Of a stretch of DNA of 64,000 bases, positions 1,809-59,460 are shown in pieces. Source of the DNA: Eledone cirrhosa. Taxonomy: Eukaryota. Every line of letters starts with the position of its first letter. Within the stretch, counting starts at the first letter, position 1. The position numbers and the translations under genes are program-made. Below the pieces are notes generated by a model, which made no database searches, had not been told where the DNA came from, and was given only the letters and a program-made list of their open reading frames with translations. The stretch spans positions 99,510,001 through 99,574,000 of the forward strand of contig OZ024744.1 of assembly GCA_964016885.1 (NCBI GenBank), read 5' to 3'.

Positions 1809-1914
1809 CAACTGCTGTATATTGTATGAAAGGTCGGTGTGTTGCTGCTGCTGCTGCTACTTTCACTGGATAATCACCTCCTCCTGGATATCCTTCGTAT
1901 TCTAACGTTGACCA

Positions 1915-3370
1915 CCATCCCCACTACCATCATCATCACCACCACCATCACCTAAACTACAACCACCACTACTATTACTACTGCTGCTCCCAGCACAACC
2001 ATCACCACTGCCACAACTACAATCACTACTACCACCATTACTGCCACTACAGCTGTAACCACCACCACCACCATCACCACAACTGCAATCACTACTACCA
2101 CCACTGCCATCACCATCATCTCAATTACAATCACCACCACCACTACAATCACTGCTATACTACCCTACTACCACCATCAGCATCACCCCTACAGTTACTA
2201 CCACAACCATCACAACTCCCCCCACTACTACTACTACAACCACCACCATCATCACTACAACCACCATCACCGCTACTCCCACCACCACCACAACTACTAC
2301 TGCAACCACTACCACCACCACCATCACCATCATCACTACAGCCACCATCACCGCTACTCCCAACACCACCACAACTACTACTGCAACCACTACCACCACC
2401 ACCACCATCATCACTACAACCACCATCACCGCTTCTCCCACCACCACAACTACTACTGCAACCGCTACCACCACCACCACCATCACCACCACCACAACTA
2501 CTACTGCAACCACTACCACCACCACCATCATCACTACAACCACCATCACCGCTACTCCCAACACCACCACAACTACTACTGCAACCGCTACCACCACCAC
2601 CATCACCATCATCACTACAACCACCATCACCGCTACTCCCAACACCACCACAACTACTACTGCAACCACTACCACCACCACCACCATCATCACTACAACC
2701 ACCATCACCGCTACTCCCAACACCACCACAACTACTTCTGCAACCGCTACCACCACCACCACCATCACCACCACCACAACTACTACTGTAACCACTACCA
2801 CCACCACCATCATCACTACAACCACCATCACCGCTACTCCCAACACCACCACAACTACTACTGCAACCACTACCATCACCACCACCACCATCATCACTAC
2901 AACCGCCATCACCGCTACTCCCAACACCACCACAACTACTACTGCAACCGCTACCACCACCACCATCACCATCATCACTACAACCACCATCACCGCTACT
3001 CCCAACACCACCACAACTACTACTGCAACCGCTACCACCACCACCATCACCATCATCACTACAACCACCATCACCGCTACTCCCAACACCACCACAACTA
3101 CTACTGCAACCGCTACCACCACCACCACCATCACAACTACTACTGCAACCACTACCATCACCACCACCATCATCATCACTACAACCACCATCACCGCTAC
3201 TCCCAACACCACCACAACTACTACTGCAACCGCTACCACCACCACCACCATCACAACTACTACTGCAACCACTACCATCACCACCACCATCATCATCACT
3301 ACAACCACCATCACCGCTACTCCCAACACCACCATAACTACTACTGCAACCACTACCACCATCATCATAT
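1915..3370. repeat. ACC/ACT/ATC/ACA trinucleotide-derived minisatellite with a higher-order unit of roughly 75-80 bp
   Basis: The anchor CACCATCACCGCTACTCCCAACACCACCACAACTACTACTGCAACC recurs many times with variable (ACC)n spacers. It produces the 439-aa and 413-aa minus-strand ORFs. Confidence 0.95.
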
Positions 3371-3409
3371 CTGCTACTGCTGCTGTTGTTAGTGCAGCCA
3401 TATTGTCTG

Positions 3410-3516
3410 TCAGTCAGCTTATTTAGCAGTGTGACTACTGACTGCTCCCAGCCTTCACTGCCTCTGACACTCATTTACAGCCAGTTGAAAAACCCCCCTT
3501 TTTTGACGACACAATC
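3410..3516 (+). promoter_or_regulatory. Putative transcription start and 5' UTR of the synaptobrevin gene
   Basis: Unique, more GC-balanced stretch directly before the AT|GTAAGT donor. Inr-like TCAGTC at 3410-3415. A possible acceptor (tttacag) at 3480 means an upstream UTR exon is also possible. Confidence 0.35.
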
Positions 3517-3518
3517 AT
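3517..3518 (+). CDS. Syb: Synaptobrevin/VAMP coding exon 1 (AT of the split start codon AT|G)
   Basis: Exon 2 starts with an orphan G before TCT GGA (Ser-Gly), so an upstream exon must end in AT. acaatcAT|GTAAGT has a consensus donor and A at -3. As I recall, vertebrate VAMP2 has the same split ATG. Confidence 0.72.
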
Positions 3519-28540: not shown

Positions 28541-28582
28541 GTCTGGACCACAAAATCCACAGGCTGGCCCTGGGGGTCCACC
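28541..28582 (+). CDS. Syb: Synaptobrevin exon 2, (M)SGPQNPQAGPGGP(P); 42 nt, phase 2-2
   Basis: ttacttAG|G TCT GGA CCA ... CCA CC|GTAAGT. GC-rich island in AT-rich intron; Pro/Gly-rich N-terminus typical of synaptobrevins. Confidence 0.92.
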
Positions 28583-29467: not shown

Positions 29468-29573
29468 GTCAGGCCCACCACAGCCTGGTGGCCCTCCTGG
29501 CCCGCCACAAGGCCCCCCTCAGCCTGTCCAGCAAAGTAAACGGTTGCAACAAACACAGGCCCAAGTTGAAGAG
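29468..29573 (+). CDS. Syb: Synaptobrevin exon 3, [35 protein letters not shown]
   Basis: tctttAG|G ... GAA GAG|GTAATT; start of the R-SNARE motif (RLQQTQAQV). Confidence 0.97.
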
Positions 29574-29825: not shown

Positions 29826-29904
29826 GTTGTAGATATTATGCGCGTGAATGTTGATAAAGTTTTGGAAAGAGATTCTAAAATCTCTGAACTGGATGACAGA
29901 GCAG
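29826..29904 (+). CDS. Syb: Synaptobrevin exon 4, [26 protein letters not shown](D); contains the zero-layer Arg
   Basis: ctacAG|GTT ... GCA G|GTTAGA; near identity to the VAMP1/2 SNARE core. Confidence 0.98.
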
Positions 29905-32236: not shown

Positions 32237-32579
32237 AATATTATGAATAGGTTTTACACAGAACTGTGAAGCTGTTTAAAAAATATGCAACAATTTTAGT
32301 ACCTCTAAACTGTCAAAAAACAAAATGTTTTAAAATATTGAATTTGTATTCTAGATCCTAATAGATTCACGGAGGAATATATAGCCCAATTTGACATGAA
32401 AGCATCTTTCCTTAAAAACTGTTATACCAAATCATCTTATTGCACTATTTGCCAGATTGATAAAGTATCCCCAGGCATGGATTTATTAATTTCATAATGC
32501 TTTAAGCAATTGTAATGTTGAAGTTTTCTTTTGTAGCATTTTAGGCTCTTTTAATATTTTTTTTTTTAAATCTTTTTAG

Positions 32580-32659
32580 ATGCACTTCAAGCAGGTGCCT
32601 CACAGTTTGAAGCAAGTGCTGGAAAACTCAAACGTAAATTCTGGTGGAAAAACTGCAAG
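32580..32659 (+). CDS. Syb: Synaptobrevin exon 5, (D)[26 protein letters not shown]
   Basis: tttttAG|AT GCA ... TGC AAG|GTATGT; ASQFE site and the juxtamembrane KLKRKxWWKN motif. Confidence 0.98.
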
Positions 32660-33539
32660 GTATGTCTGGTTTTAAGATTTAAATAACTTTCTCTGTAGAT
32701 AATTATCTCTATATTAAATTTTATGACAAAATTCTCACCTCTTGAATTTATAATAGACCTTTCAACTAACATAAGATCATATAATTTAATCATTTAAATA
32801 TATATTTTTCGAAGATTTCATTGTGTAATTTGTGAAAAGTATTTAATTCTTAATTTAAATATTTTTATAAGTAAAATAAAAGCATTCTATGGAAATTTAT
32901 TTTCCATTTAATAGATTATATTTGTTATTTTAAATCTATAATTTTCCTGATGAGTTAATTGATATGATGAAATCAGTATAAAAGGTTTTAAATTAATGTA
33001 TTAATGTTAAATTATACACTACCAAGGTGCTGGAATGTTTAGAAAAATCCTCTTGTGTGTGTAATTTACTAACTCGAATAATTTAAATCTTTTCATGTAT
33101 ATAAAAGTGAATTGTTTGAACTAAAAAATGAAGAAAAAATGCAATAATTTTTAGCATTGAAAATCATAACAACCTAGAATAAATGTACTTCACTGATTTT
33201 TGAAGTTTTAATAGTTGTATAGTTTTTTTTTTAAATGACACATTTCATACATATTGAAATAGTTTTTGAATAGCCATACACAACATAATGTCCAAATTAT
33301 TCATTTTGGAGTCATTATAACATAATTAGATGCTTGCTACTCTCTGTGAGTGATCATTTCCAATATATTTAAGTGTTTGAATTTCGGATGGGTAATCCAT
33401 AACAACTTTATTGTATATTTTATGGAGGAGAAAAAATTAAATATGTTGAGTTTAAATTTTATAATGTATACAGCCTGGTAGAATTATTTTATGAACATGG
33501 TATAAATCATGAAGCCTTATTATTACTAAATAATTTCAG

Positions 33540-33591
33540 ATGATGATAATACTTGGTGCAATTGTGGCAGCCATTGTCACTGTAATCATTG
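33540..33591 (+). CDS. Syb: Synaptobrevin transmembrane exon 6A, MMIILGAIVAAIVTVII(V); 52 nt, phase 0-1
   Basis: tactaaataatttcAG|ATG ATG ... ATT G|GTAAGT; canonical MMIILG start of the VAMP transmembrane domain. Confidence 0.96.
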
Positions 33592-34358
33592 GTAAGTGCT
33601 GGTGTCATCGATTATCAATCACTTTCTTGTTGAGTTTGTTTACAACAGCTTCATGGAAATACAGTTTTTTTTATCCACTCAGTATATGCAATAACTTGCT
33701 GTTTAGTTTACTTTTTTTTGTTTTTTATTTTATAAAACAAGCAAAAAGTATGGGTTACTGCATCAAAATATGTTGAGTGATAAAAAAAAAAAAAATCTTT
33801 CAACCACATAAGAGCTGATTGTTACTGAACCAACATTTCGAAAGTGTTTTTCTTTTCTCCAGCACTGAATGCCAATTTAGAAATTTTATTTATTTCAAAT
33901 TTTTATATACTTTAACAATTTGCATCTGAATTTTTTTCCCCATAGCACGCAAAGCAAATTTGCTATCTTTCTTTCAACTTTTTTTTTTTTTTTTTTTTCC
34001 AATATCTATTCTGGAATGTTATTATGCCTATTTTTTTTATCTTGCACTTGCACGCCAATCAAACATATATATATATTTTTCTTTTTTTTTTTTTCAAATT
34101 TTAACCTCTTAAATTAGATTGCTATTTGATTAAATTTCATAAATGTGACCAGCTTCTGTTGTGCTCGTTGATATGAAATTTAAAAAAAGTAACAATAACA
34201 CAGAAAAATCAAAAAGCATTCGGACAATTTTCAAGAAATTTATTTTTTTTTAATGTTGAAGTCAATCTTTTTAGAGGTTAAACCATTTTATTTATCTTCT
34301 TTACTTTACAATTTTTATTTATTTGCACTTTTGGCTTTTTTGAAATTCTCTTTTACAG

Positions 34359-34410
34359 ATGATCGCTATTCTTGTTACCATTGTACTTGTGATTATTATC
34401 ATTATCATTG
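34359..34410 (+). CDS. Syb: Synaptobrevin alternative transmembrane exon 6B, MIAILVTIVLVIIIIII(V); 52 nt, phase 0-1
   Basis: ttctcttttacAG|ATG ATC ... ATC ATT G|GTAAGT. Same length, phases, first codon and last 7 nt as exon 6A, with an uncharged hydrophobic translation. Confidence 0.88.
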
Positions 34411-36633
34411 GTAAGTTATTGTTGGTCTTACGAACTGCCATCTACTCTAACACTGTAATGCAAAGAAGATGTCGGTTCTTTTGTGCTGCTCTAACATTCT
34501 CTTAATTCCAGTGAATGAAATACCTCGATTTCATAAACCATCTATTAATCCACTTTTTAAATGCTTTTTGTAATACTAATTTCTCAGTTAAAAATGGATT
34601 AGGTTTTCAATTCTAAATCGTGTAAAACACTGAATTGAAATTCAATTTAACAAAAATTTCAGCAACTTTCTGTGATAATCCTGAATATTATGTTGCTATT
34701 ACTTTCTGACTTCCTAACTTTTGCAACTATCCCGCTCTTGCAACCCCCCCCCCCCCCTCGTTCTTCATTTTTTGCTCTTTCTCTCTGAAAGTCGGTCTAT
34801 TATTGCATGATTGGTTTTATGTATATTTATGACCAAACATGGTTTGGTCATAATTTACTAGGTGCTATCCTGTTGAACTGAATAAAGGCTAAAAGATCCA
34901 ATGTCAAAAAAATTAAATCTAATTTCATTGAAACTAGAACAGGGCTTAAACCAAGTATATGATCAGGACGAAGTTCATTGTGAGAGGATAGTTCACAGCT
35001 GAAGATGCAACAGATTTCAAAGACGATCTGGTTGGTGATTGGGCAAGACAACCTTTTCCTAAAGAAAACACCACATTTGCAAAGGAATATTTGAAAAATT
35101 ATTACAAACTGAGAAATTGGTTAATTCAGTTTCAGCTTCCCATCTAATGGAAATCCATATGTAGTTGAAGTTTCAATATTTAGAAAGTCAATCTGTTGTT
35201 GCTAGAACAACCACATAATTTTCTTTTCTTTTAACCCCCTATTTCATGAAACATGAGTAGGTGACCAGACAAATCTAGATTTTGAATTTAATCAGATTGT
35301 TTATACAAAATGTTGCCTTGGAGGGCTCCAAAGAAGTCTTCTAATAGAATAGTTTATGGATTCCAGTTACTTGTTGCAGATAAGACTTGTTCCTCTTTTG
35401 TAATCATAAATGGAATAGACCTTGGTTTCAATGAGTGTTCCAGCTGTTCATGAAATTATGTAAGTGAAACTAGTAAAATAATATATGCACACACACGCTG
35501 GAAAGTGGTTGGTGATAGGAAGGGCATCCAGCTGTAGAGGGCTTGCCAAACGGTTGTTAAAGACATGATAACCTCCCCTTTGCACCTGACAACTTGAGAC
35601 AAATCCATGACTTATCTGGGAAATCAGTACTGACTTGGTCTATGTAGAACCTGTCCAACGCTTGCTAACAGGGAAAGTGGACGTTAAAATTATATATATA
35701 CTGGAAAGACTGATGTAAAACTATATAAGCCTTTCATGTATTGCTGTAGCATTGTAGTATATGAAAACGGCTTCTGGCTGAGAATAGAGCAGAATAGATT
35801 TGAGAGGATTCTTCTGGCAACTGATCCACTCATTTTAAATGTTGATTATCATGAAGCTAGAAACTTGTCCATTTGCCCAACTTTGAACTGAAGATGCTCT
35901 GAACTTAAATTTGGATTAAACATTTTAAAATGATTGAGCTAAGAATCTAGTACACCAGAAACAAACATCATCAGTTCAGATTTTATTAATGAATAAGGCA
36001 ACCTGAATATCCTTTGCTCAATCGCATAGCACATCCTGTAAAATGGTTGGTGTTAAGAATGGTATCCAGCTGTAACTATGCCAAATATGGAACTTATAAG
36101 CAAGATGCGATATCTTTGTCATCAAGTCTAAAACTATGACAATCCGTCCCACCCATCCAACATGGAAGGCAATGTAAAATTATGTTGATGAGGGTTGTAT
36201 TTTTGTTTTTATATAAAGTTTTTTTTTTTTTGTATTATCCTAATCATATATTTTCAAGTAATAATCAAATTGTATGTATGCAAAGGTAGAGAAATGGATG
36301 TAAAATAAAGAGAACTGTATATTGTTTTTTTTTAATATAAATTAACGTAATCATATATTTTCAACTAATCAAATTGTTTGCAAGCATGGAGAAATGGGTG
36401 TATGGTGATGTTTCTTAACATTTAATTTGTGTGTGTTTGTATGTATATATATATATATATATATACACACACATACAAATGCAATGAATCTAAACATATC
36501 AAATATATTAGAATTTTGTGTTTCTCAATAAACAAGCTCAATAGACATTGTCCAGTAATAAATCAATTGTAAAAGATATATATCTATATATATATATATA
36601 TAGAGAGAGAGAGGTGTGTGTGTGTATAGAGAG

Positions 36634-36668
36634 AGAAAGAACCATATTTTGTAGAGAAAACAGTATAC

Positions 36669-36711
<43 letters not shown>

Positions 36712-36838
36712 TGGATACATATTTCATTGAGGATTCATTAAGGAACATGTACTCAAGATGAGTACATGTTCCTTAATGAAATATGTATCTAGTATATATA
36801 CGATATACTGTGTTTTCTCTACAAAATATGGTTCTCTC
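36634..36838. repeat. Long interrupted inverted repeat (fold-back)
   Basis: Perfect 22-bp inner arms at 36734-36755/36759-36780, with further arms at ~36703-36723/36780-36800 and 36638-36662/36811-36835. Confidence 0.92.
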
Positions 36839-38116
36839 TTGCTCAAAATGTAAATATTACATATTTATTAGTGTAAATGCAATAGGTGTATGGTAGATAT
36901 TTTCAGTTAAGTTTTTCACAAATTAGCTTTTGCAAACATTTTGTAAATGTTCTGTGGTAGTTACTTTTAGGCTGTTATGGAAAACTAAACGCTTGTTTCA
37001 TTATAATTGATATGCCAAATATCAAGCATTAGGCCTCCTGGACTGCCATGTTCCTTCACCAAATTCGGATGGATGAGGACATCACATACACTAAGGGTGG
37101 AGCCTGGTGGGAGTGGAATGGCTGATGCCACGAATATTACTGCTTGTTTTCTGCAGCAATATTTTCGCCAGGTTATCTGGACGCAGCTTAGATAAGCCGT
37201 CCAACTATGATAGGAGAGTTTGCTCCCCTTTTCCTTGTTTTTTTTGTTTGTTTCGTTTTACTGTTAAATTCTAGAAGAAAAAAAATCTTCACATCTTATT
37301 TAACATGTTAATCACCAGCTAACTGAACCATTAAATTATTCCTGTTAATTATGTGGAATTGGTTTGGAGCTTATTTTGTAGCTTGCAAAGTAAACTGAAA
37401 TATTAAAAAAAATTATTTATTTAGAATTTTTAGATTTACTGGATGGTCTAATTCCTCTTTTTAAACAAAATAATTTCCATTTTAACATTCAAACATTTTT
37501 CTGGGCCTATTAGTTCAGCAATTATTTTATGCCAACTTACCTGAGGCTACCCCTGTTTCTATGCTGTTCATTTTGAAATTGAAACCTTCCGCAACAGAGG
37601 CTCTTAGATAAAATTTTGTTCCAAAACAGTATGGTGATGTTAATAATTTTTTTTCTTCTTTTTTTATGATTGCATTCCACCTTTCTTAGACTTAACATAC
37701 CTTTCTTAGACTTAACATTAACAATTCCCATTTCTTCCTTGGTCAGCTTCTGTAAGTTTCATTATGTATTATGTGTCTATACCAGTTAGCTCTCTTTGCA
37801 TACCTACTTTCTAGTTCTTGAGTATGCTCAGTTTTTTTTATGTTTTATGCATATTATGATCCATTGGGTTTTCAGCGTTAACTAATTCTTCATCATATTT
37901 CATACACATTGCTTTATTCATTAATACCATCAAACGCCATGCCTTCTTCATGCAGGTTACTCTTTGCCAACAGGGGACTGCAATTCTATCATTAGGGAGC
38001 TGAAATTCCTTCAGTTCGTGGTTTTCTCAGTTACTCACTATTGTATACATGGTTCAAATCCTCCTGGTACTTCAGTTTTTAGGTTTGTTTTTTTTTCCTA
38101 TACACATGCCAGCCAG

Positions 38117-38151
<35 letters not shown>

Positions 38152-39721
38152 CTTGGCCAAATGTTTTGTTTGTAATCATTTGGTCCTGGGTTCAATCCCA
38201 CTGTGTGATATCTTGAGCAAGTGTCATTTACCATAGCCACAGGTTAATCCAAGCCTTGTCGGTGAGATTGGGTAGACAGAAATTAGAAATTGTTTGAAAG
38301 CTTGTCAGATGGACTGTACCCATCAAGCTAAATCTCTGAAAATTGCATTACAGGTACATATGTTTGTGGAATGCAGTCACTTACACTTTAATTTCATGAG
38401 GAGGCTTACTCATTGACTGAACATGTAGAACATCTAGAACACATCAGAACCATAGGTCTGTTCTGTGTGTTTTGTATAAATGGTAGTATCAGTAGCAAGC
38501 ACCAGACAGTTGTTGTCTTTGTCAACTACTGTGGTCAATTTGACTTAACTTCTTTGTGGAGAAGGCACATGGCTTAATGATTAGGGTGTTCTGTTCACAA
38601 CTGCAAAGTTATGAGCTTGATTCCTAAAACGCGTGCTAAAACGTGTATCCTTGAGCAAGACATGTCACTCTAGTTCACTCAACTAGCAAAAATGAGTTGT
38701 CATTCAGGATCTCCCTGAGAATTATATCAAGAGTGTCTGTGGAATGCTAAGCCTCTTGCAAATTAACAAATATACTGCTTGTGAAATTAATGTGTAACTT
38801 AGGTTGTAATAATTGTATACTAACTACATCAATGATTATTGGCAGTAATGATGATTATAGTGGTGATGGCTTATGAGTTGTATCAAACATGACAACCTCC
38901 TTAATGCTGGTGCCACAGTGCAAAAGACTCAGCACTCTGTAGAGTATAGCAAGATGTGGTTCATCCGTGATGTCTGTCGCTCTGATTAGGTATTGAAATG
39001 ACCCATCCAACTCTTGCTAGCAGGGAAAACAGACATTAAATGATTGATATATCATCATCGTTTAACGTCCATCTTCCAAGGATATTTGGAAGGATTGAAT
39101 AGATTTTCAGCCTGATCTTTGTTAAAAATCTAAAAAAAAAAGCATAAATCATAAATGCATTCTACAAACTTTTCTAATCTGGCTATAAAATGGTTCTTTA
39201 CATGCATACATAATATAGTGTATGTGTGTGTGTATACATGCACACATACATATATACACACACCCACAATCTCATTTACATTTTATTGTTCATCTAACAT
39301 TCTGAATTCTCTCCTTTATTTGAAAAATTATTTCAGGAAACCTTTTAATCTTATGGCTATATATTGTGCACTTTATTTAAAAAAATAAAACAAGACAATG
39401 AGTTTTCATGAATGTGTAGAAATAAGACTTTATTACTTGAATTCAACACGCATCAGTAAAATCTTTGCAGTATTTTTATTGGAATTTTAAGGTTTCAAAG
39501 AAAACAAATTGTTGAGAGTAAATTAATTAGATTTGACAATATTCTCATTTTCTTTCCTTCACGTTTGCTTTTTGTCCTTTGTACACATTTCATATGCACA
39601 TATTATATATTTCAGTTTAATTTTATTTCATTACCTTTGCAATTGAACCTTTCTGTAGAATAATTCAATGCAAGTATTTCACCACAAAATTTAACGTGCA
39701 TCGACTGTTCTTTTCCTCTAG

Positions 39722-39736
39722 TATTTCACTCATTTG
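39722..39736 (+). CDS. Syb: Candidate 15-nt microexon (V)FHSF between the TM and tail exons; phase 1-1
   Basis: TTTAAC branch-like motif, then ctgttcttttcctctAG|TATTTCACTCATTTG|GTAATA; frame-preserving. Confidence 0.35.
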
Positions 39737-40727
39737 GTAATATTTTGGTTTTTTTTTAAATTGTATAAGAAATTTTTACCTTTTTTTTTTTTTTAAATGT
39801 ATCCAACATTGAAACTGCTTCTAATGTTTATTATATTATTTCTTTTTAAGCAAATTCATTTTTTAAAAAAATTAGATATATCCTGGTAGCATTGTAATTA
39901 TGAGCATTTAACATTTATTTTACTTTACATTATTTGTATTAAAACAAAAATTTAGATTCTTTGGAAATATAATTGAGTAAAGTTGTAATTTAAATATTAT
40001 TAACTATATTTTACATTTTAAAATATTGTAGATATGTTAACTTAAATGTATATTTTTAACTGTTAACCTCTTCTTAGCTAGAAGTACTACTTAATTTTGA
40101 CCATCAAATTAAGTTTTATAAATTTAAAAAATTTATTTTAAAATTGTGCTGATATTTTGATATTCTTATATATTCACCGTATTAAATGTTTTGAGTGTGT
40201 ATGAAAACTTTATATGAAATTTAATTTTGTTTCATTAACTCATTGTATTGACAGATTTAAATTTCTTTGAAAGTAGACCTATTTTTATTGTCTCTTCATT
40301 GTTCAGTAATAATTTTAAAAAATTATTCACTATTTGGCTATAGAACTTTTTTTTTTTTTTTTCTTCCTCCATCTTTGAAACTATATTTTCTAGTGAGCCT
40401 GTATTTTTTCTTTGTCCATTTCTATTTGAATTAAATTTTAACTTGCATGTTATTCTTCACATCTGCTTGAAATTGATAGTGTAATCTCTACACATCCTTC
40501 TTGGAATTGCATCAATACAATGAGTCAATGTTTTGTGAATTGTACTTATGCAAGACAGTTATAAACGTGTGTGTGTGTAATAATATATACATATATAATG
40601 CGTGTATGATATATGTATAGGTGTATATGTATATTTGTGTGTATGATCTAAGAATAAATCTATGTACCTTAATTTATGTACCAAATTTAATCTGTTCCTA
40701 TTTTTTTGTCTTCTTTACCTATAACAG

Positions 40728-40744
40728 TCTGGGTGGCCACATAA
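40728..40744 (+). CDS. Syb: Synaptobrevin luminal-tail exon A, (V)WVAT*; probable exon end 40758
   Basis: Long pyrimidine tract, then ataacAG|TC TGG GTG GCC ACA TAA; donor GT|GTAAGC at 40759. With exon 6A it gives a 125-aa protein ending like squid synaptobrevin (VWAAT, from memory). Confidence 0.88.
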
Positions 40745-41220
40745 ATACTCTATGATGTGTAAGCTCAAATTTCTTGTCTTATGAATATATATATTGCACT
40801 AATCAACATTAGATGTTGTACATATTGTATATATATAGAGGTAGATGTTTTTTGTCTCAGATTCAAGTGTAGTTATACTTGTGTGTGTTGGTTTTCTGCT
40901 GTTAGGGGTTTTTTTTTTTTATTGCACTTATAGCTCAATTGTGTGTATGTATGTTGTGTGTGTGATATACATATTGCTTTGTAAAATACATGCTAATTAG
41001 GGAATTAAACAATCTTTCACTTTAAACCATTTGTATAATATAGTTTGAGTTCATTTTAATTTACAGTTTTGTTTTGTTTAGTGTTATAGAGTTAAAAAAA
41101 AAAAAAAGTTTCTTATTGTTAACCATCTTGTAGATGGTCTTAGGTGTTGAGTTTTAGTGTTGTTCAGTGATGACCTGTTTCAATTTAAAATGCTGATATT
41201 GGTTTTTGATCACGCTAAAT

Positions 41221-41564
41221 TCATTCATTTCATCATTTCATTTTACGTCCACTTTTCCCTGCTTGCAAGGGTGGGACGGGAACTGATTCTGGCTTGATTT
41301 CTACAGCTAGATGCCCTTCCAAACACCAACCTCATTTACAGTTAGTGCTGGGTGCTTTTTTGTCGTGGCACCTCCACGACCACTTTGCAGTGGAATGATA
41401 TGGACCCCAGTCCCTATCATCTCATTTCTACAGCTGAGTAAACTGGAGCAATGTGAAATAAAGTGCCTTGCTCAAGGAAACAACACATCACCCGGTCTGA
41501 GAATTGAGCTCACAACCTTTCGATTACAAGGCCAATGCTCTAACCACTAAGCCATGTGCCTCCA
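41221..41564 (-). mobile_element. Apparently full-length tRNA-derived SINE, a near-identical inverted copy of 56881-57223
   Basis: Reverse-complement match over ~340 bp (see ORFs 41311+ and 56895-). A/B boxes and an (ATG)n-type tail. Confidence 0.9.
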
Positions 41565-41577
41565 TCTTTTATATATT

Positions 41578-41676
41578 TTATAAGAACAGATTCAAGTTTA
41601 AGCAAAGAATTGCTGCTTTCACCCTTAATGGATAAAAGCAGTAATTCTTTACTTAAACTTTAATCTGTTCTTATAA
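41578..41676. repeat. 99-nt hairpin: 42-bp stem with 15-nt loop
   Basis: TTATAAGAACAGATTCAAGTTTAAGCAAAGAATTGCTGCTTT pairs with 41635-41676, with one C-U mismatch, one C-A mismatch and one G-U pair. Confidence 0.92.
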
Positions 41677-41824
41677 TAATATATATATATAATCAGTTCT
41701 GTGTGAACGAAACACACTCCTTTGACCTGGATCTCTCACAATGGGACAGCCCATCTTACCCATGTTAGTGTGGAAAATTGACATTAAAGAAGATATATAT
41801 ATTTACATTACATATTTGCTTATA

Positions 41825-42039
41825 TTAACCCTTTAGCATTTACATTACTCTATATTTACTATTGTATTTTCACGATAAACACTTTATTTCACATCTTGCA
41901 TATCGAATCTGAGATTTTGATATTTATTTTGAGAACAATACCTTAACATCAGTATGAGTGGCCGGTTACAGCCAGTTTGAACAGAAAGAGGTAAGAGAAT
42001 TCTGGCCCGATATGACCGGTTTAAATGCTAAAGGGTTAA
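41825..42039. mobile_element. TTAA-flanked piggyBac-type MITE, family 1 (intact ends)
   Basis: 14-bp perfect TIR CCCTTTAGCATTTA/TAAATGCTAAAGGG with TTAA on both sides. Confidence 0.93.
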
Positions 42040-44529
42040 TTTATTCATATTTATTCATAACACACAAAAATGTACTAAAATCAGGTTGATAGAAACAAAT
42101 CTTGCTAATAACAAATAAACTGATTATCACTTAAATTAATTTATTAATTCTGTATTAATTTTTATCAGCATTTTAAATAAATTATTGCCTCGTTACTTGA
42201 GAATGGGGACAATAATTATCCTGATTGTTCAATATTAATATACATATTTTGTTTGATTTAGTCTTGACTAAAATAATTTCATAATTACTAATTGAAATTT
42301 TAGAGTTCTGTTGAGTTCTACTTTTTCTTGTTCATATATAAATTTAGTGTAGAGAATATATTTGATCTAACTTAATAGTTGTCTAGCCCACTGATTTAGT
42401 AGACCTGCTATAAACTATCCTTCTGTTGTTAAGATATAATATCTGACTTTAAGCCAGTTAGATAGTTTGATGTAATCTAAAAGGGTTGTTTATTATTTCT
42501 AGCAGGTTGACGGATCATGTAAAAGTTCCCTTATTTCAAATTTACAGTTTTATCAAGTTTTTTTAATTTAATTTTTCTTCAAATATTGTTTCATTAGCGA
42601 CTATAGGTTCTTCTGTCCTGTACCACATGAAACCACATTCTTGAACACTATAAAACACTGACTGCATCACATTAAATATTAGTCTTTATTCTAATACTGC
42701 AGATACTCACAATCTGTCCACCAGTAAAGAAACGACAAATATTTGAACACATTTTTAAAGGTAATTTCTGATAAATCATTACAGGTTAAGAGTTAAGATG
42801 GAAGTAAAACGATGAGTTTGTTGTATAATCCCTAGCAGGACTTATTAAACAAATAGAATGGACCACTGTCAATCTCGACAATCAGTGTTCCGGTTGTTTG
42901 ATCAACAGAACAACCTGCCCATGAAATTAAGTGGCTGATCCAACAGGCTTCCAGTTTGTCTACCTGGTTTTACTCACAAGGTAGAGGTCAGCCCGAGGCT
43001 ATGGTAATTGACACTTGCCCAAGATGCCACATACTGGGATTGAAAACTGGACCTAATGATTGCAAAGCAGACTTCACCATTTGCTGTCCAGTGTTGAATA
43101 TAAATATATATATGTATATTAAATTTCATACATTTAATCTTCAGCATGCTGAATTTTTTCTTCTAGGATTGCTTCCCTTGACACTGCAATATGTATTAAG
43201 GGGAGATTATTCTAGTTACGTCCCTTTACGATCTGAGGTTGACTTTGCCTTTCATCCTGACGGGGTCGATAAAATAAAGTACCAGTAATGCACTGGGTAA
43301 TTGCTGGCCTTGTGCCTAAAGTAGAAACAATTATTCTATTGGTGATTTAACCTGGAGGCTCTAGGCACCTTAACATGTATGCACGTCCTTAGGTTTCAGG
43401 GACCAGTTATGGCCAACACTATAGTGGTGAAGTCATTTCAAAACTGGCTTCTCGTCAGGCTCCAGGACATATCTAGGGATATCCTGCACACACATGTGTG
43501 TGTCACAACAAAAAATAAAGTCCACGCTGTAATGTGGCCGTGTAGGTAACATGGTAAAAAGACTCCCAGTCAACACTGTAAATGTGGTTGGTGTTAGAAA
43601 GGGCATCCAACCGAAGAAAACCTGCCAGATAGTGCTATATGAGCGAGACAAGGTCATCCAACCAACCTTGCTTCAAATTGGGACAATTCCCGTCTAACCC
43701 ATGCTAGCGTGGAAGATGGACGTTAAACGATGATGATGATATATATAAAATCACACGCATGCAACTAATTTGAGTTAGAGAATCCATTTATATTTAAAAT
43801 AAAACGCTTTATCCCTTAATTCCCTCATAGACATATATACAAATGGTGCTGACGATCCATTAATTTCTACATGCACACACAAACAATACATACAATTGGT
43901 TCCCTCTGATAGATTTTGTTACATTTTACACATTCAGTAGATCATATTACTTTAAGCTCTAAAGGTTTTGTTAGTAATTTTCAGGCAAGCAGTTTACTAT
44001 TTTATAATCAATTGTGATCCCAAAAGGTTTTATTCTCTTGGACAGTTAGTTTCTAATAGTTTTTTTAACTCTTAACATCCTGTACCACATGAAAAGTACA
44101 AAATAGCATCATGACTGTATAACATTAATGAAGTCTTTATTCTAAAACTGCAAATGTTCACAATCTATCCACTAGCAAAGATTCTAGAGATATTTGAATT
44201 AACAAACCGCATTAGCAAGGCATATTTGAAAAGTATAAAACTGCACTGTGACTATCACATTTTAAAAAAATGGTGATAATGAAAATTGTGTATAGTGCTC
44301 AGGTGCACTACAACTCATCAAAGGTGCATGTATAGTACATAGAATAATCGTTTCTACTTTTGGCACAAGGGCAGCAATTATTCCAGTGCATTATTGGTGC
44401 TTTATTTAATTGACAACAATAGGAAGAAAGGCAGTTAACCTTGGCAGGATTTGAACTCATAGTACATAGAATAATGTACAAATGTCAGGAAAGTTAAGTG
44501 TATAAGTCATGATATACACACAGATACAC

Positions 44530-44695
44530 ACGCATATGGAGGAGGAATTTTGAAGGATGTAGTGTCCCAACAGCTAACGACTGATGCAGGTGGTTTATTC
44601 CATGCAACTCTGAGCGTGAAAAAATGTTTACGAAAGTCGTGGGGGCTATGGTGTTTTCTGACTTTGTAGACATGCCCATGGGTGTTACACATGTA
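44530..44695 (-). mobile_element. CR1/L2-type LINE 3' end
   Basis: THGHVYKVRK...RKHFFTLRVAWNKPPASVVS...SFK matches the CR1-clade C-terminal 'TRGH..K...R..FF..RV...WN.LP..VV...SFK' pattern. Confidence 0.75.
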
Positions 44696-45809
44696 AATAT
44701 TAGTCTTTTCTCTAGTACTCAAATTTTCACAGCAATCTGTCCACTAGTAAAAATACTAGAAACATTTGAATTAACAAACCTGTTTTTAGATGTTTTCTGC
44801 TAAATTATTACAGGATCTTAAGAGTTAATAGACATGTCTCTTGTAGCAGGTCTAATCATATTAATTCAAGGATTCTTTTTTGGCCGCTTTAATAAAGGCT
44901 TTAAGGGTTTTTTATTTGAGGTAAACAATTTAATGTGAAATATTTATCAAAGCTTGTCACAGCAGTTGAATTTGAAATCTACGTTTTACATCTGAGAGCT
45001 TGTAAAGTTATGATAGAGAATAGTGCTATGGAATATCAATACCAGATTTATTAATTCTTTAATTGTATTGTTTATTATCAATACTTTTACACTTTCACAT
45101 ATTTCTTTTAAATATAGGCTTTCGTGTGTTTTGAATATGGTGCATGCATTTTAATTTATATAATGTGCACTGAGTTCACTTTTTCTTCTTGAATACTGTT
45201 TATGTGGTTATTGTTTCTAAATGTTGTTTAAATTTATTTGTTACTGTTTCAAACAAATATATCACTGCTTGCAATCTGTTAAGATGTGTACCAAATATTC
45301 TTGTCTAACTTTAAATTTTATAACTTTGTATTTCAAATGAAAACTGTTTCAAACTGTGATTTTGGGTTTAATATGTAAAGTTAAGAACAGTTTAAATAAT
45401 ATTTTCTCGGAAGTCAAATGTATATTTACTAATCTATGTAATTTATATTTGGGATAATTTCAGTGAATTAGATACCATATATACTCATGTACAAGTCACA
45501 TCTTTTCCCACAAAAATGTGAAATATCAGCACAGGCCCTATCTACTTGACCTACAAAGTGGTACAAGTTAGATGCATGTAAAATGGTGTGACCTATTATA
45601 CATAAGTATATACAGTACTCATTTTTTTTTGGGGGGGGGGGTAAAGTTCAGTTAATTGAAACTCTAAAACATATTTAACAATAGAAATAACAGATCTAAT
45701 TTATTCGAATTTAACTTTTACAAAATTTTACTAATGTAATTTTATTTATGGAGTGTTAGATAAATTTTGTACTAATATTCTTTTCATTCTTTTCTCATTT
45801 ACCATGCAG

Positions 45810-45835
45810 TCTGGGTAGCCAACAAATATGGCTAA
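45810..45835 (+). CDS. Syb: Synaptobrevin luminal-tail exon B, (V)WVANKYG*; probable exon end 45837
   Basis: ACTAAT branch motif, long pyrimidine tract, then catgcAG|TC TGG GTA GCC AAC AAA TAT GGC TAA TG|GTAGAT. 11 of the first 12 nt are identical to tail A. Confidence 0.8.
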
Positions 45836-48546
45836 TGGTAGATTATTTTCATTCTTTTGATGTTGTCATTTTCGTAATTTCTTTATTTTTAATGGTTCAA
45901 CATTTATTTTATACTTAATGTAATTTATTTTTCTGTCGGTTTTAGTTTTGAATTTGTATATCAAAATTTATATCTTTGCCGATTGGGGGTGTTGTTGTTC
46001 AAACCATTATATATATATATATACACAAGTGGGAAAACCCCCGTCCAAACCCATGCAAGCGTGGAACACGGACGTTAAACGTTGATGATGATGACACATA
46101 TATCTAATGCGAAGAGCAAATTGAAGAAAAATTGGGTACTTTTTTTGTCTTAAGTCCCAACTGCGCAGTTTCACCAACTGTTATGCAGCTAAAGTGCACT
46201 GAAGTTGTGAGGTTGTTGGCTTGTCAAGATACTCCCTCAGTGTAAGGACAAATTCCCTGGACTGACTGCTACTAGTGAAATTTTCGAAAGCAAAAATTAT
46301 CACATGGTTTTAGTCAATACTGAGGGGTAGACTGTTGGCAAGTAACAGACTTGCTAGAAGAAGCAGTCTATTTCAGCTTAATTTTTAACTCAACCATATG
46401 GGAGTTAGGACAAATTATAGAAAATACATATGCATATAGATACATAAGTATTTGAGGTGTCCTTCCTTTACATATTTTGCTCGATAAATGAATTAAATAA
46501 TCATTTAATCAGAGCTATATAAAATTGTGTGAAGAGCATATATTTATATATATATACCACCATTAGTTTAGATAAAATTCTTCGCCAACAAAATACAATT
46601 AACTATTTACAATTTATATAATTCGGGAGTAAAGCAATACGGATACATCTTGAATGTTTGAATTTTAAAAATTTGTGCGGTATTTCAAAATTATATGAGG
46701 CATAAAACTAACAGCTTATGTTTATCGTTTGTTCCCACCTAAACGATGTTTACTATGTGCTTTAATTATATCATTTACGATATAGTTTCGTGAAATTATA
46801 TTAAAATTAACTGAGCTAGTGTCCAATTCTAAAACGGATTCCAATAATTTAAATTTTATTTAATGTTTTATTTTTTAAAAAGTGTAAGGTTTCAAAATTA
46901 AAGAATTCTTACTGAAAATATTTTGTATGGGCATGGAAAAGCTAGGAATTTTAGATATGATTCATGGTGGAGATGTATTGAAATTCTTTTTCATATTCCT
47001 TGATATTTGCAGCAGATGAGATAGGCATTTCTTTATTCTCTAATGCCTAATAAGGGAAAGCAAGCAGTCTGTAAATGTTGTGGGTTCTATTCCTTGACTT
47101 AGTGGTAGGTTGTGTTGAGTAAAACAATTCTTTTCATGTTGTTCCAGTCACCTCAGCTGAAAATGAGGTTATGAGGGATAGGCTCTGACCTGATGAACTT
47201 GTGTGTGGAACAGGCCTGAACTTCATATTTGATGGATTCTGGCTTTGCCATTTTTCATTCTATAATTCAAAGTAAAATGTTATCTAATGTACATAATTAA
47301 GGAATTTTTTATTGTTCAAAAATGAAAGATATTATTTATAACTTGTAAAAAGCACCAAGTACTTTTCGCAAAGTGGTTTGTGTTAGGAAAATCATCCAGA
47401 CATAGAAACCATGCCAAATTATTGAACAAATGACATGGTATGCTGACCAATCTAATCTTAGACTGTGAGAACCTGTCCAATCTTTGCTAGCATGGAAAGC
47501 TAGAATATTAGTATGAGATATCCTCTCTGTCTAGAGATGGCGGTGTACAATTAAGATTAGTGTGGCTAATGTGGTGATAAAAATGTTATATTAATTTAGT
47601 AAGTGAGGTTTCTTAACAATATTGATCTTTGAAAAGTTACTGCATGTAACATTGATCAGTCTATTGTGTTTTAGGAAATACAATTTTTAAAAAATGTAAA
47701 TTAATACAAAGGAAGTATGTTTAGAAAGCAACAAGCAAATTTTGAAAATTGAAGTAGAAATAAAAGGTTTCGTCATATCATTTGACTAAATAAGTACAAT
47801 TTTTTATCCTGTTCTATACATTTGTTTCGGAACTGCCTGAGAAGAAATATTTTAGCATTTTAAATTTTTTAATAGTATTTCAGTTAGAGGACTTAGGATT
47901 TAACAATTATCATTTGAGTACATTAAAATTTGGCAAATTGACAGTCATTAGAACATCAGCAAGAATACTTTGTAGTGTTTGTTCTGGGTCTCTGAGCTCT
48001 TTGAGTTCAAATCCTATCAATGTTAATTTATCCTTTCCATGTTGATAAAGTACCAGTTCAATAGTGGAGGTTTATTCTTCCTTTGATCTCTCTTTTGCTG
48101 GAAGAAGAAATCAGTTATGTTCAAACCTGGAGAGAGGGTGGGTTTTACCAGGTTTAAAAAATGTCCAAGGCATGTCAAGACAACTCCTTCAGGAGTTAAG
48201 GGTGCCATGGACATTGAAATATAGAACCCAATATTTACTGTATATAGTAAAATATAAGCCAATGCCATTATTTTATGTCTGAGAAATGGGCAAAAATCTA
48301 AACCTTAATTATGTAGAATTTGAAGTTGGTGAAAATCATCAAAATAATGACCCCGAATATAAGCTGACCCTATTTCTACCTTCAGGTTTTTTTTTTTTTT
48401 TTTTTTTTTTTCATGGGGGTCACATATTCCTCGGCTTATATTCAAGTATATATATGGTACTTCTGTATAAATTTTTTTTTTTTTTATGTATAGTGCATGT
48501 CATTTATTTTTATTTTATTTTCTTAATTTCCAATGTTTTAATGTGT

Positions 48547-48728
48547 TTAACCCTTTAGCATTTAAACTGGCCAGAATTCTCCTCACCTCTTTCTGTTCAA
48601 ACTGGCTGCTCATACTGATGTTAAGGTATTGTTCTCAAAATGAATATTAAAATCTCATAGATTTGATATTATGTGAGATAAAGCCTTTACCTTGAAAATG
48701 TAGAGTAATGTAAATGCTAAAGTGTTAA
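48547..48728. mobile_element. TTAA-flanked MITE, family 1 (inverted relative to the 41825 copy)
   Basis: TTAA-CCCTTTAGCATTTAAAC ... AAATGCTAAAGTG-TTAA. Confidence 0.88.
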
Positions 48729-49329
48729 ATTGTTGGAATGCTTTGATATTCAAGTTCTAAGAAATTATGTAATTGAATTGGTATATTTGAAACAATTCTA
48801 TTATATACTCAGTAGTATTGAATTTAAAATCAATAGATATTTCTTCATAAGATTTACTAGAATCGTTGTTTCTTGTCGAGCTTTTGCTGAATTTTCTTAC
48901 AATTTCTTTAAGCTTGCTTAATGAATTTGACTCCTTTCTATTTGTGTTGGTGCATATGTCCAATTTCCATTTCTTTAAACATATTTTCCCCCTTCAGAAG
49001 ACTAACAATACAATCTTTGTGTAACCCTTTTTATACCAGCCCCACTCAAAACCTACTCTGGCTCTATGAAACAAAACCACCCATTTTAATGGGTTCCTAT
49101 TTAAATTAAAATTCTCTAATATAATTTCATATAAGAACCATATTGGGCTATTATCTCAGTAATGAAATAATTGTTTGTCAATCCTTAATTAATTGAAATA
49201 GTGTCGTTAGAAACACAATCACAAAAGGGTTGAATTAAAATCTTAAAATTATTTAAATAAATACTGTTATGACATAATATAGTTTGTAATATTGACGAAC
49301 AGGAATGCATATGACATTGTAAGGCAGTG

Positions 49330-50420
49330 TTTGAGGCTTGCTCAACCAGAAGAGTAAGTTAAGCATGATGCATGGAATAGATGAACTAACTGAATGCAAG
49401 TGGAATATCTTCTAAAGCATCGGCTACGCTGTACAAGGGAAATAATTATGGGTTAAGCTGAAATCCAACTTTAAATCATCAAATAAAGTATTCTCGCAGA
49501 CCATCTGCCAACTTTGTGATAAGAAAAGGTATGCTCTGGATCTGTAGAAAGGCACCAAAGCAATGGCAATCAGGAGTGATAATCCCAATTTTTAAAAAGG
49601 AAGAAAAGGTTCTTATTATAGAGGAATATCTTTGTTAAACCTTTCCGGTAAAGTCTATGCTAAGTGTCTGGCAAAGCGATATAGAGAGATTGTTGGGTCC
49701 AAGCTAGCTGACCAAATATTCACTCTGCAGCAAGTCTTTGAGAAATTGTGAGTATTGCCAACATGTGTATGCTTCTTTTGTGGACAGTTTTTTTGTTGCC
49801 TTCAAGTCCCTGGAGGAATGATGAATGGCAGGAATGAAAATCAGTGCTGCAAAGACACTCTCTTTCTCCCAAGAAAGCCATTACAGTGCTCTCTGCATGT
49901 GAGTGGAATTCCACTGAAGCAGGTGAAGAAGTTCAAGTATCTTGGAGTAATTTTCATAGGTGATGAAAGGCAGGAGGCTGAGCAAGAATTATTGGAACTG
50001 GTGCAGTAATGTGCCAGCTTCAGCATTCAGTCCTCAGAAGAGAGGTATGTGTAAAAAACCAAATTTACTATCTTCAATTCAGTATCTGTGCAAACCCTTA
50101 CCTATGGCAATGAGTGAAATGCAAAAGGTCTTTGGCCTAAAGTTACTCAATACGTGGCTCAGTGATGGAGTTTTGGTACTGTGGACATGTGATTGAAATG
50201 TCTCAGGAAATAATCGCTGGTCAGATTTTATAGGCAAAGCCAATTAGCAGTAGACCCAAAGTTATACGACAAGGAAGATGGCTGGATAACATCCATGAGC
50301 TTAGTTGATCTCTATTGCAGATTCAGCTGGAGTCAGTTGCTTCTGATAGGACCCTCTGAAAGGTGTGTTTGAGGAGTATGTCACTATGACCCTCCCTAGG
50401 AAGAATAAGTTGTAGAAGAG
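49330..50420 (+). mobile_element. RTE-like LINE remnant (RT domain and C-terminus; internally deleted, frameshifted)
   Basis: WQSGVIIPIFKK, YRGISLLNLSGKVYAKCLAKR, LKQVKKFKYLGVIF, CGHVIEM and RWLDNI motifs, in order. Confidence 0.85.
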
Positions 50421-50773
50421 AATATATATTTTACTAAGTTATAAATGCTATGAAATTTATTTAAATTATTTTTACTTCTCATTTTAAATAAAACTTAAAT
50501 TTCACTAGTTGATAATTTTATAAATTTGTTTAAAAATGAAGTAAAATTTACATGTTTATGGTTGGAACAATTTATATTATTTCATTTATTTGTAGTTAGC
50601 TATATAGTATTTTGATAAAGTTTAAGTAGAATTAATATAAAATTACATATTTAGTCAATTCTTTGGGGTAATAAGAATTGAACTAGTTTTCTTACCAACT
50701 CATTGCATTAAGCTTTCTTCAGTTTATGAAAATATATTGGAAAGATAGGCTTTTTAAAATAGCATGTTTTTAA

Positions 50774-50823
<50 letters not shown>

Positions 50824-50849
50824 GTTTATGCACAATCATACATTGATAC

Positions 50850-51040
50850 AAATTTTTCGCACCAGTTGCCATCAAGAACTCGGGAATCCTCAGACCCCGT
50901 ACTGCCAAGCTCCTCCATAAAAATCAGAATGTCAGCAACCTATCTGAGGAAGGAGCCTTGTGATGTGGGGTGGCTGTTTCAGCAGGTGTCACTGGCCATT
51001 GTTCGCGAAAATACCTTTGCAGTTATGTCTGGGGTGCAGC
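50850..51040 (+). mobile_element. Second REL-endonuclease-type non-LTR 3' remnant
   Basis: FAPVAI ... DVGWLFQQVSLAIVRENTFAVMSG; same motif as 30530-30750. Confidence 0.6.
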
Positions 51041-51326
51041 TAAAACACAGCTCTGTTTTAAGCATAGAACCTATCACCTCTCCTTTTCCCTTATCTTTCT
51101 TCTATGACTTCATAGTCCTCGCTTTTTCCTGCCTTTTCCTCTCATTTATGGAATTTATAGTCCTTTTCTTTATAGCCAGATCTGCCCTTCTTTACTCCTT
51201 CCCCTTTTTTGATTATTTAATTTTGGTTTATATCCTTTTTTGATATTTCCATCCTTGTATAACTTCTTTTTCATAAAATATAGTTGACATGTTTATGTAT
51301 TTTATTTTTTTTTTCTTAAATTTCAG

Positions 51327-51355
51327 TTTGGCAAGTGAATGATTCTTCAAAGTGA
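51327..51355 (+). CDS. Syb: Synaptobrevin terminal exon, luminal tail C, (V)WQVNDSSK*
   Basis: ttttttttcttaaatttcAG|TT TGG CAA GTG AAT GAT TCT TCA AAG TGA. Phase 1, conserved V-W, followed by a long UTR-like region. Confidence 0.82.
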
Positions 51356-57723: not shown

Positions 57724-59345
57724 TTTACAGTGAGTACTGGGTGCTTTTTGTCGTAATGCCTACACTTTACAGTGTAGACTGGATGCTTTTTGTCATGACA
57801 CCTAAATGACCACTTTACAGTGTAGACTGGATGCTTTTTGTCATGACACCTACGTGACCACTTTACAGCATAGACTGGATACTTTTTGTCATGACACCTA
57901 AATGACCACTTTACAGTGAGTACTGGGTGCTTTTTGTCATGACACCTAAATGACCACTTTACAGTGTGGACTGGGTGCTTTTTGTCATGACACCTACGTG
58001 ATCACTTTACAGCGTAGACTGGATGCTTTTTGTCATGACCACTTTACAGTATGGACTGGGTCCTTTTTGTCGTGACACCTACATGACCACTTTACAGTAT
58101 GGACTGGGTCCTTTTTGTCGTGACACCTACATGACCACTTTACAGTATGGACTGGGTCCTTTTTGTCGTGACACCTACATGACCACTTTACAGTATGGAC
58201 TGGGTCCTTTTTGTCGTGACACCTACATGACCACTTTACAGTATGGACTGGGTCCTTTTTGTCGTGACACCTACATGACCACTTTACAGTGTGGACTGGG
58301 TCCTTTTTGTCGTGACACCTACATGACCACTTTACAGTGTGGACTGGGTGCTTTTTGTCATGACACCTACGTGATCACTTTACAGCGTAGACTGGATGCT
58401 TTTTGTCATGACCACTTTACAGTATGGACTGGGTCCTTTTTGTCGTGACACCTACATGACCACTTTACAGTATGGACTGGGTCCTTTTTGTCGTGACACC
58501 TACATGACCACTTTACAGTATGGACTGGGTCCTTTTTGTCGTGACACCTACATGACCACTTTACAGTATGGACTGGGTCCTTTTTGTCGTGACACCTACA
58601 TGACCACTTTACAGTATGGACTGGGTCCTTTTTGTCGTGACACCTACATGACCACTTTACAGTATGGACTGGGTCCTTTTTGTCGTGACACCTACATGAC
58701 AACTTTACAGTGTGGACTGGGTCCTTTTTGTCATGACACCTACATGACCACTTTACAGTGTGGACTGGGTGCTTTTTGTCATGACACCTACGTGATCACT
58801 TTACAGCGTAGACTGGATGCTTTTTGTCATGACCACTTTACAGTATGGACTGGGTCCTTTTTGTCGTGACACCTACATGACCACTTTACAGTATGGACTG
58901 GGTCCTTTTTGTCGTGACACCTACATGACCACTTTACAGTATGGACTGGGTCCTTTTTGTCGTGACACCTACATGACCACTTCACAGTATGGACTGGGTC
59001 CTTTTTGTCGTGACACCTACATGACAACTTTACAGTGTGGACTGGGTCCTTTTTGTCGTGACACCTACATGACAACTTTACAGTATGAACTGGGTCCTTT
59101 TTGTCGTGACACCTACATGACCACTTTACAGTATGGACTGGGTCCTTTTTGTCGTGACACCTACATGACAACTTTACAGTGTGGACTGGGTCCTTTTTGT
59201 CGTGACACCTACATGACAACTTTACAGTATGGACTGGGTCCTTTTTGTCGTGACACCTACATGACCACTTTACAGTATGGACTGGGTCCTTTTTGTCGTG
59301 ACACCTACATGACAACTTTACAGTGTGGACTGGGTGCTTTTTGCC
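57724..59345. repeat. 48-bp minisatellite with higher-order structure, expanded inside a SINE
   Basis: Unit ATGACCACTTTACAGTATGGACTGGGTCCTTTTTGTCGTGACACCTAC, more than 30 copies. A SINE tail on the minus strand precedes it at ~57567-57725. Confidence 0.96.
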
Positions 59346-59460
59346 ATCACATTAGAAATTAGTCTTTATTCTAATACTGCAAATTTTCTCAACATTCTGT
59401 TTACTAGTTAAAATACTATAAACATTTGAATCAACAAACCTGGTTTTAGACATTCTCTAT

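Follow-up and report, generated by a model that had tools for sequence, protein, structure and literature searches.

The 64-kb window analyzed here, the whole stretch from position 99,510,001 to 99,574,000 of contig OZ024744.1 of Eledone cirrhosa, carries a synaptobrevin gene on its plus strand. In this gene a constant SNARE core is followed by two alternative exons for the transmembrane anchor (TM1 and TM2) and by three predicted or observed terminal exons for the luminal tail. This two-tier cassette is real, probably ancient and not specific to the lineage. All exons given below lie on the plus strand, with positions counted within the window. The constant exons resemble squid synaptobrevin and the Octopus vulgaris protein model P0271, and they comprise a 42-nt N-terminal exon (28541..28582, SGPQNPQAGPGGPP) that matches P0271, a proline-rich exon with the start of the SNARE motif (29468..29573) that matches squid synaptobrevin P0002, a 79-nt SNARE-motif exon (29826..29904) and a last constant exon (32580..32659) with the end of the SNARE motif and the juxtamembrane WWKNCK, closing in phase 0. 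In the protein search, a squid PDB chain was the sole match to the proline-rich exon. The start codon appears to be split, and the best-looking of five AT|GT(A/G)AG matches upstream of exon 2 places the candidate end of the first exon, with its AT and phase 2 donor, at 3517..3518. The last core exon agrees at 96% with squid synaptobrevin and the product scores above the Pfam PF00957 cut-off; with its short proline-rich N-terminus (the first exon being a candidate), its single C-terminal anchor and no longin domain, the protein is a brevin-type R-SNARE.

The anchor exons TM1 (33540..33591) and TM2 (34359..34410) are tandem homologous exons of equal length and phase: 52 nt each, flanked by AG and GT, running from phase 0 to phase 1, and identical at 32 of 52 nt. 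TM1 encodes residues 95-111 (VAMP2 numbering) with Gly at position 100 and is of the VAMP1/2 type, while TM2 has Val at 100, carries no Gly and is of the VAMP3 type. Behind them lie three phase-1 acceptors that restore V-W and lead to distinct stops, with coding parts at 40728..40744 (tail 1, VWVAT*), 45810..45835 (tail 2, VWVANKYG*, predicted) and 51327..51355 (tail 3, VWQVNDSSK*, predicted). An earlier sequence-only reading of this DNA had proposed just this arrangement, namely an invariant core ending in WWKNCK in phase 0, two interchangeable 52-nt TM exons and three tails; all of these were borne out in the sequence, as was the statement that each of the six TM x tail joins is in frame. 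The same reading had added a 15-nt microexon, given without coordinates, and from it a count of 12 forms. No credible microexon, on which the count of 12 rests, was found, none of eight candidates upstream of the core exon having a GT(A/G)AG donor.

Splicing was followed in the runs of relatives, of which 16 of 18 are presumed to be RNA and four were aligned on 32400-39100, a stretch ending before the tails. Since the RNA nature of the runs is presumed, only spliced GT..AG joints and loose ends were counted; contigs were taken to show presence, with no ranking of isoforms by depth and no weight given to uncovered parts. Small differences from the window in tail 1 and TM1 mark the runs as coming from relatives. 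In all four, the loose ends join the 79-nt exon directly to the last constant exon. From this last constant exon, a GT..AG joint leads into TM1 (32659>33540) in run X4 and into TM2 (32659>34359) in runs X8 and X12, which belong to two studies. Both anchor exons are thus joined to the same upstream exon, at the two junctions that had been predicted. X4 and X12 both stem from organism A, and each has one unbranched contig, leading from the core into TM1 in the former and into TM2 in the latter, a contrast that suggests a sample-dependent switch. As for the predicted junctions between anchors and tails, TM1 is followed by tail 1 in the loose ends of X1, X4 and X8, and this tail varies between relatives (VWVAT and VWVFA). 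Joins of TM2 to any tail, or of either anchor to tails 2 and 3, do not occur among the listed joints and loose ends; with a listing of part of the rows and an aligned stretch that stops short of the tails, this does not speak against them.

Parts of the introns next to the anchor exons are themselves conserved. Behind TM1, the stretch 33592..33800 recurs in relatives (a contig of X8 aligns at 33567-33661 and 33723-33795) and likely serves splicing control or a read-through form. In contigs of organism B the intron flanks of both anchor exons align and the rest of those contigs does not, a pattern that, judged from the alignments, would be as expected for regulated exons. Open frames read through from both anchor exons into the introns, adding 61 residues to TM1 (33592-33780) and 31 to TM2 (34411-34510), and these frames resemble intron-retained VAMP1/2 models. 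The sole octopus protein retrieved, P0271 of O. vulgaris, is such a TM1 read-through model; its first 23 read-through codons are identical to those of the window, with a frame difference beyond.

The tails were evaluated with a profile derived from 28 distinct tails of animals other than cephalopods and applied to 153 plausible acceptors, to all 1544 AG sites and to 4011 minus-strand controls. Tails 1, 2 and 3 rank first, second and third among the plausible acceptors and first, second and fourth among all AG sites, with scores of 18.8, 17.7 and 9.0 bits against a best control of 7.4. The three acceptors thus exceed chance, tail 3 being the least secure. The nearest relatives of tail 2 are VWVATTYG of chiton and mussel and VWIATKYA of Priapulus, and that of tail 3 is the mussel VWAVEDNK. 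By its anatomy, each tail opens its own terminal exon with downstream AATAAA/ATTAAA signals (for tail 3, an AATAAA cluster from 52112), and use in splicing was seen for tail 1. A further site, missed by the sequence-only reading, lies between TM1 and TM2: a possible but unproven fourth tail exon (33749..33780, VWVTASKYVE*) scores 17.3 bits and ranks third of the 1544 AG sites. Its acceptor is weak (AAG, with 8/20 pyrimidines), and no joint to it occurs among the 15 of 18 joints listed. Perhaps it is a relic, or a tail used with TM1 only, which would hint at a duplicated unit made of anchor plus tail. At this site, a difference in run X8 at 33764 would end the tail after five residues, as in tail 1, and a tail of about this kind, five residues long, would also agree with the read-through model of O. 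vulgaris. Farther downstream, a CAG acceptor at 53173 with a good pyrimidine tract opens VYFTQT..., resembling the Ciona VYFSTK and vertebrate IYFxT tails; at 7.3 bits it falls inside the control range.

Isoform sets from other animals were collected by squid and hagfish protein searches, with 120 of 1536 and 120 of 998 matches listed, respectively, and from 30 protein clusters. Joins of different anchors and tails on one SNARE core per species were found in RefSeq isoforms of Mytilus edulis and M. californianus (5/6 possible joins each), in Haliotis (4/6, two species pooled) and in Liolophura, Mercenaria, Ruditapes and the hagfish Myxine (3/4 each). Biomphalaria and Eptatretus show two anchors on one tail; in Ciona, Lampetra, Priapulus and three echinoderms a single anchor is combined with two different tails. 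Modelled introns in automated gene models are usually backed by junction reads. Both anchor types are present in chiton, gastropods, bivalves, a nemertean and hagfish, so the suggestion that the cassette is a trait of this lineage did not hold. The broader claim, that a single gene yields several v-SNAREs with the same cytosolic domain, stands for the anchor tier through the runs of octopod relatives and for the anchor x tail joins through isoform models of other molluscs and hagfish. In Physella X3 and Lineus X3 the odd C-termini are compatible at 17/17 positions with TM1 followed by TM2 in a shifted frame (the comparison with Priapulus X1 gives 5-6/17), and therefore the exon order TM1, TM2 of the octopus applies to a pulmonate snail and a nemertean too. 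In the same collection, three isoforms are anchorless, with a hydrophilic C-terminus after WWKNCK (P0257 and P0259 of M. californianus, P0071 of Lineus); no counterpart of it was found in the window.

The tails leave room for a more modest account, in which the anchor switch is real and the tail tier is mainly a switch of 3' untranslated region (UTR) and polyadenylation, with the tails of 5-9 residues as by-products and tails 2 and 3 perhaps rare in octopus. That each tail starts a separate terminal exon with its own polyadenylation signals fits such an account, as do the difference of tail 1 between relatives and the fact that tail 1 alone was seen spliced. On the other hand, the tail 2 motif is recognizable in chiton, mussel, clam, abalone and Priapulus, and its retention across such distant species suggests selection on the peptide. 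We regard a mere UTR switch as unlikely, if by no means negligible; it is compatible with what is said below on the ancestry of the anchors.

For that ancestry, the anchors were compared with those of vertebrates, by means of profiles of 14 distinct anchors from 31 jawed-vertebrate VAMP1/2 proteins (one of 32 was dropped for having no anchor) and 24 from 34 VAMP3 proteins. In 8/8 two-exon genes TM1 scores as VAMP1/2-like and TM2 as VAMP3-like, also when position 96 is left out; the octopus scores are +29.8 and -30.8. The TM2 signal is kept in 8/8 without positions 96 and 100, with a shuffle p of at most 0.005 in 8/8. TM2 of chiton, abalone and mussel agrees with a jawed-vertebrate VAMP3 anchor at 16/17 residues and with the TM1 of the same gene at 8-9/17. 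A tree of the anchors (36 rows, 23 columns) is split by anchor type and not by phylum, with support of 100/98, and on these 23 columns a clade of the 15 lophotrochozoan exons is rejected (p-AU 0.018). The tree of the cytosolic part (72 columns) follows species instead, with vertebrates at 82/70 and jawed vertebrates plus Petromyzon at 95/94; the cyclostome genes may or may not group with VAMP1/2 (p-AU 0.21). Such a conflict between exon tree and gene tree, here on few columns, is what splice isoform separation would leave behind. Among 57 proteins with a VAMP1/2-type N-terminus, 53 carry TM1, two carry TM2 (hagfish and lamprey) and two have no anchor exon. In the protein models of hagfish, Myxine X1-X3 and Eptatretus share one SNARE core with either anchor, as a gene from before the duplication would. 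At the level of these models, hagfish is the key witness for a vertebrate gene with the two anchors together. In the sampled proteins each paralogue appears to keep a different exon.

From these comparisons it appears quite probable that the mollusc and vertebrate exon pairs share ancestry. Vertebrate paralogy and octopod splicing, which had been set in contrast, are then likely one history and not two strategies, because each of VAMP1/2 and VAMP3 has a single type of anchor. The genome was also searched for a second brevin-type gene, with 150 of 12164 candidates scored and each of the 10 further proteins that passed the Pfam threshold compared. None was found, these 10 being at most 49% identical over alignments of at least 20 residues, and therefore this octopod probably uses splicing for what vertebrates do with paralogues. 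The tail tier may have been divided among vertebrate paralogues as well, given that YF(S/C)x tails like those of VAMP1/2 occur in chordates (P0196/P0273 of Ciona, P0175/P0276 of Lampetra and P0025/P0243 of Myxine); VAMP3 has VWxxS/T.

Several points weigh against a shared and ancient switch, and those are gathered here. The comparison has 17 informative columns of low complexity under strong functional selection, where convergence can mimic descent, and the anchor classes were named after the sequences had been seen. The TM1 signal is weak: its shuffle p is under 0.05 in 3/8 genes, and 2/8 lose the sign without positions 96 and 100. Of the eight two-exon genes, seven are molluscan and thus not independent. 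Octopus TM2 is without the Trp of its class, the Priapulus anchor is neutral (-0.9) and a tardigrade-like one looks mixed. In the sample, echinoderms have only a TM1-like anchor, and tunicates and one hemichordate only TM2. The vertebrate group of the cytosolic tree is not starred. Isoforms of the other species are predicted models, not cloned cDNAs, and both the protein comparison and the paralogue search cover the limited portions of matches and candidates given above. Finally, the exclusion of one anchor by the other is not strict, double inclusion being annotated in Physella X3 and Lineus X3.

The first of these points feed the possibility that anchor exons were duplicated in tandem independently in lophotrochozoans and chordates and converged on Gly100 and Trp96 forms. 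The segments are short and hydrophobic, the TM1 signal is weak, no two-exon gene appears among the sampled echinoderm, hemichordate, tunicate and priapulid proteins, and the tail tier itself demonstrates that this gene family duplicates exons readily. Convergence would nevertheless have to produce the 16/17 identity of mollusc TM2 to VAMP3 anchors and the rejection of a lophotrochozoan clade by the AU test, and ambulacrarians and tunicates together do show both anchor types. We therefore consider independent duplication improbable. A cephalopod-specific combinatorial innovation for neural complexity, to which the sequence features peculiar to octopus TM2 and tails and the possible fourth tail, seen only in octopods, might have pointed, was rejected as hardly tenable, since the same two tiers join in isoforms of chiton, bivalves, gastropods and hagfish and the same exon order recurs in snail and nemertean. 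That the gene has one functional path (TM1 and tail 1) and otherwise dead exons is just as hard to sustain: P0271 has TM1 only and tails 2 and 3 were not seen spliced, yet the joints from core to TM2 in two runs of two studies refute it for TM2, splice sites and frames are intact and homologous tails are annotated in other molluscs.

Shared ancestry of the exon pairs thus remains the preferred account, and we think it likely that the locus preserves an ancient bilaterian splice switch with two anchors and three terminal exons, later divided between VAMP1/2 and VAMP3. In such a switch, one anchor exon would be joined to the constant SNARE exons, as was seen in the relatives, and everything from residue 112 to the stop, along with the 3' UTR, would come from a terminal exon, as observed with tail 1 and predicted with the other two. 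The tail tier would act as a set of alternative last exons, so that the final membrane residues, the luminal end and the entire 3' UTR are exchanged as a unit. The choice of anchor would fall to tissue-specific splicing factors acting on the conserved intron flanks and not to an RNA duplex, because the 767-nt intron shows no sign of a pairing device: the 25 longest of its 99 inverted repeats are A/T-rich and 70-94% complementary. A search for splicing-factor motifs gave a single TGCATG at 34804, which is uninformative. The switch would be older than the split between molluscs and vertebrates, with anchor 1 passing to VAMP1/2 and anchor 2 to VAMP3.

The 52-nt length bears on how the choice is kept, since the frame shifts if both anchor exons or neither are included. 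Skipping both loses the anchor, while inclusion of TM1 and TM2 keeps TM1 and adds a luminal stretch rich in Cys, His and Tyr, with a stop in the last exon. No TM1>TM2 joint occurs among the 15 of 18 joints listed, from contigs that drop rare forms. A guard against double inclusion by nonsense-mediated decay was considered and is doubtful, as in 3/3 joins the stop of the shifted frame falls within the last exon.

The functional step is the weakest part of the mechanism. By analogy with the vertebrate proteins, TM1 with Gly100 would be the v-SNARE of regulated, probably neuronal, exocytosis and TM2 a cellubrevin-like housekeeping form for constitutive or recycling traffic, an assignment that we favor somewhat over its absence. 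Gly100 is present in 8/8 TM1 and in 0/8 TM2, and the 11/11 listed mussel-type proteins without species label carry TM2, which would fit a housekeeping role. Evoked secretion is reported to be lowered by G100V and to be almost lost with G100V/C103V (PMC5460238), and Val/Ile content is tied to fusion-pore kinetics (PMC4972536). Against the assignment stands the lack of a secretion defect for G100L or poly-Val anchors reported in the latter source (PMC4972536). The runs, which carry no tissue label, differ in the anchor exon that they show, and the split into neuronal and housekeeping forms is putative. Val/Ile content over the first nine anchor residues was tried as a discriminator and rejected as inconsistent, being higher in TM2 in 4/8 genes, equal in 3 and lower in 1. 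More tentatively, the common ancestor of molluscs and vertebrates could have made synaptic and housekeeping v-SNAREs from one gene by swapping only anchor and tail; VAMP2 and cellubrevin would then be frozen isoforms, the anchor and not the SNARE motif would have been the first to determine whether a vesicle was neuronal or constitutive, and octopus, mussel and hagfish would keep the switch.

Outside the two tiers, the counterpart of the 42-nt exon at 28541-28582 is missing in some chiton, abalone and mussel isoforms, and therefore splicing may act at the N-terminus as well, as a third tier. No second copy of the 79-nt SNARE exon lies within the 64-kb window. The remaining features are repetitive: downstream of the gene, a tandem array that repeats every 48 nt (57960-59360), a low-complexity trinucleotide-like array at ~1870-3480, and very deep short repeat fragments at 35490-35550 and 39000-39050 in all four aligned runs, which probably belong to an abundant interspersed element.

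The cassette is already implicit in database models and apparently undescribed in the literature. No description was found in the openly accessible literature, subscription papers being outside the search; the main texts of PMC4494069 and PMC9741552 have no mention of VAMP or synaptobrevin, and the accessible portions of PMC9816800, PMC5406017 and PMC4342343 hold nothing on it. Among the RefSeq models of molluscs and hagfish these anchor x tail products are already represented, and it is mostly the anchor that decides whether a model is called "synaptobrevin-like" or "VAMP3-like"; caution is due, as in molluscs these annotations are forms of one gene. Because the role of v-SNARE anchors beyond membrane attachment is disputed, the passages on Gly100 in PMC5460238 and PMC4972536 being in conflict, two anchors on an identical cytosolic domain, apparently kept from chiton to hagfish, would offer a natural and internally controlled test pair. 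If the ancestry is true, it accounts for the source of both vertebrate anchors, that of VAMP2 and that of VAMP3, and the splitting of splice isoforms between paralogues gains a very old example.

Among the closest known systems is splice isoform separation as set out by Abascal et al. 2015 (PMC4494069): after a gene duplication, alternative homologous exons are parted, with one left in each paralogue. In a similar way, hagfish and molluscs keep both exons, and in VAMP1/2 and VAMP3 a single one appears to be left. Unlike in that survey, which treats 11 cases among human exon pairs, the pair here would predate vertebrates, and no sampled jawed-vertebrate protein has both anchors. VAMP1 is known for splice variants at its extreme C-terminus (Isenmann 1998 and Berglund 1999, as cited in the relevant passage of PMC3123573). 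Similarly, bird, mammal and shark VAMP1/2 models change at the residue position of the tail tier; the anchor exon is constant in the sampled VAMP1/2 proteins, unlike in the octopus gene. SNAP-25 has no transmembrane anchor. Its exons 5a/5b are likewise duplicated, mutually exclusive exons of a synaptic SNARE gene, but they form one tier and, in the section concerned, are described as a duplication of higher vertebrates (PMC2581893). As for the anchors themselves, TM1 shares the MM-I-x-x-G pattern of VAMP1/2, and TM2 of most species shares the MWAI of VAMP3, as listed in Table 1 of PMC4972536. In octopus TM2, position 96 is Ile and positions 100 and 103 are Val, the latter two as in the engineered G100V/C103V mutant of PMC5460238; TM1 also has Val103. 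In mammals VAMP2 and VAMP3 are separate in this respect, whereas here both anchors are exons of one gene.

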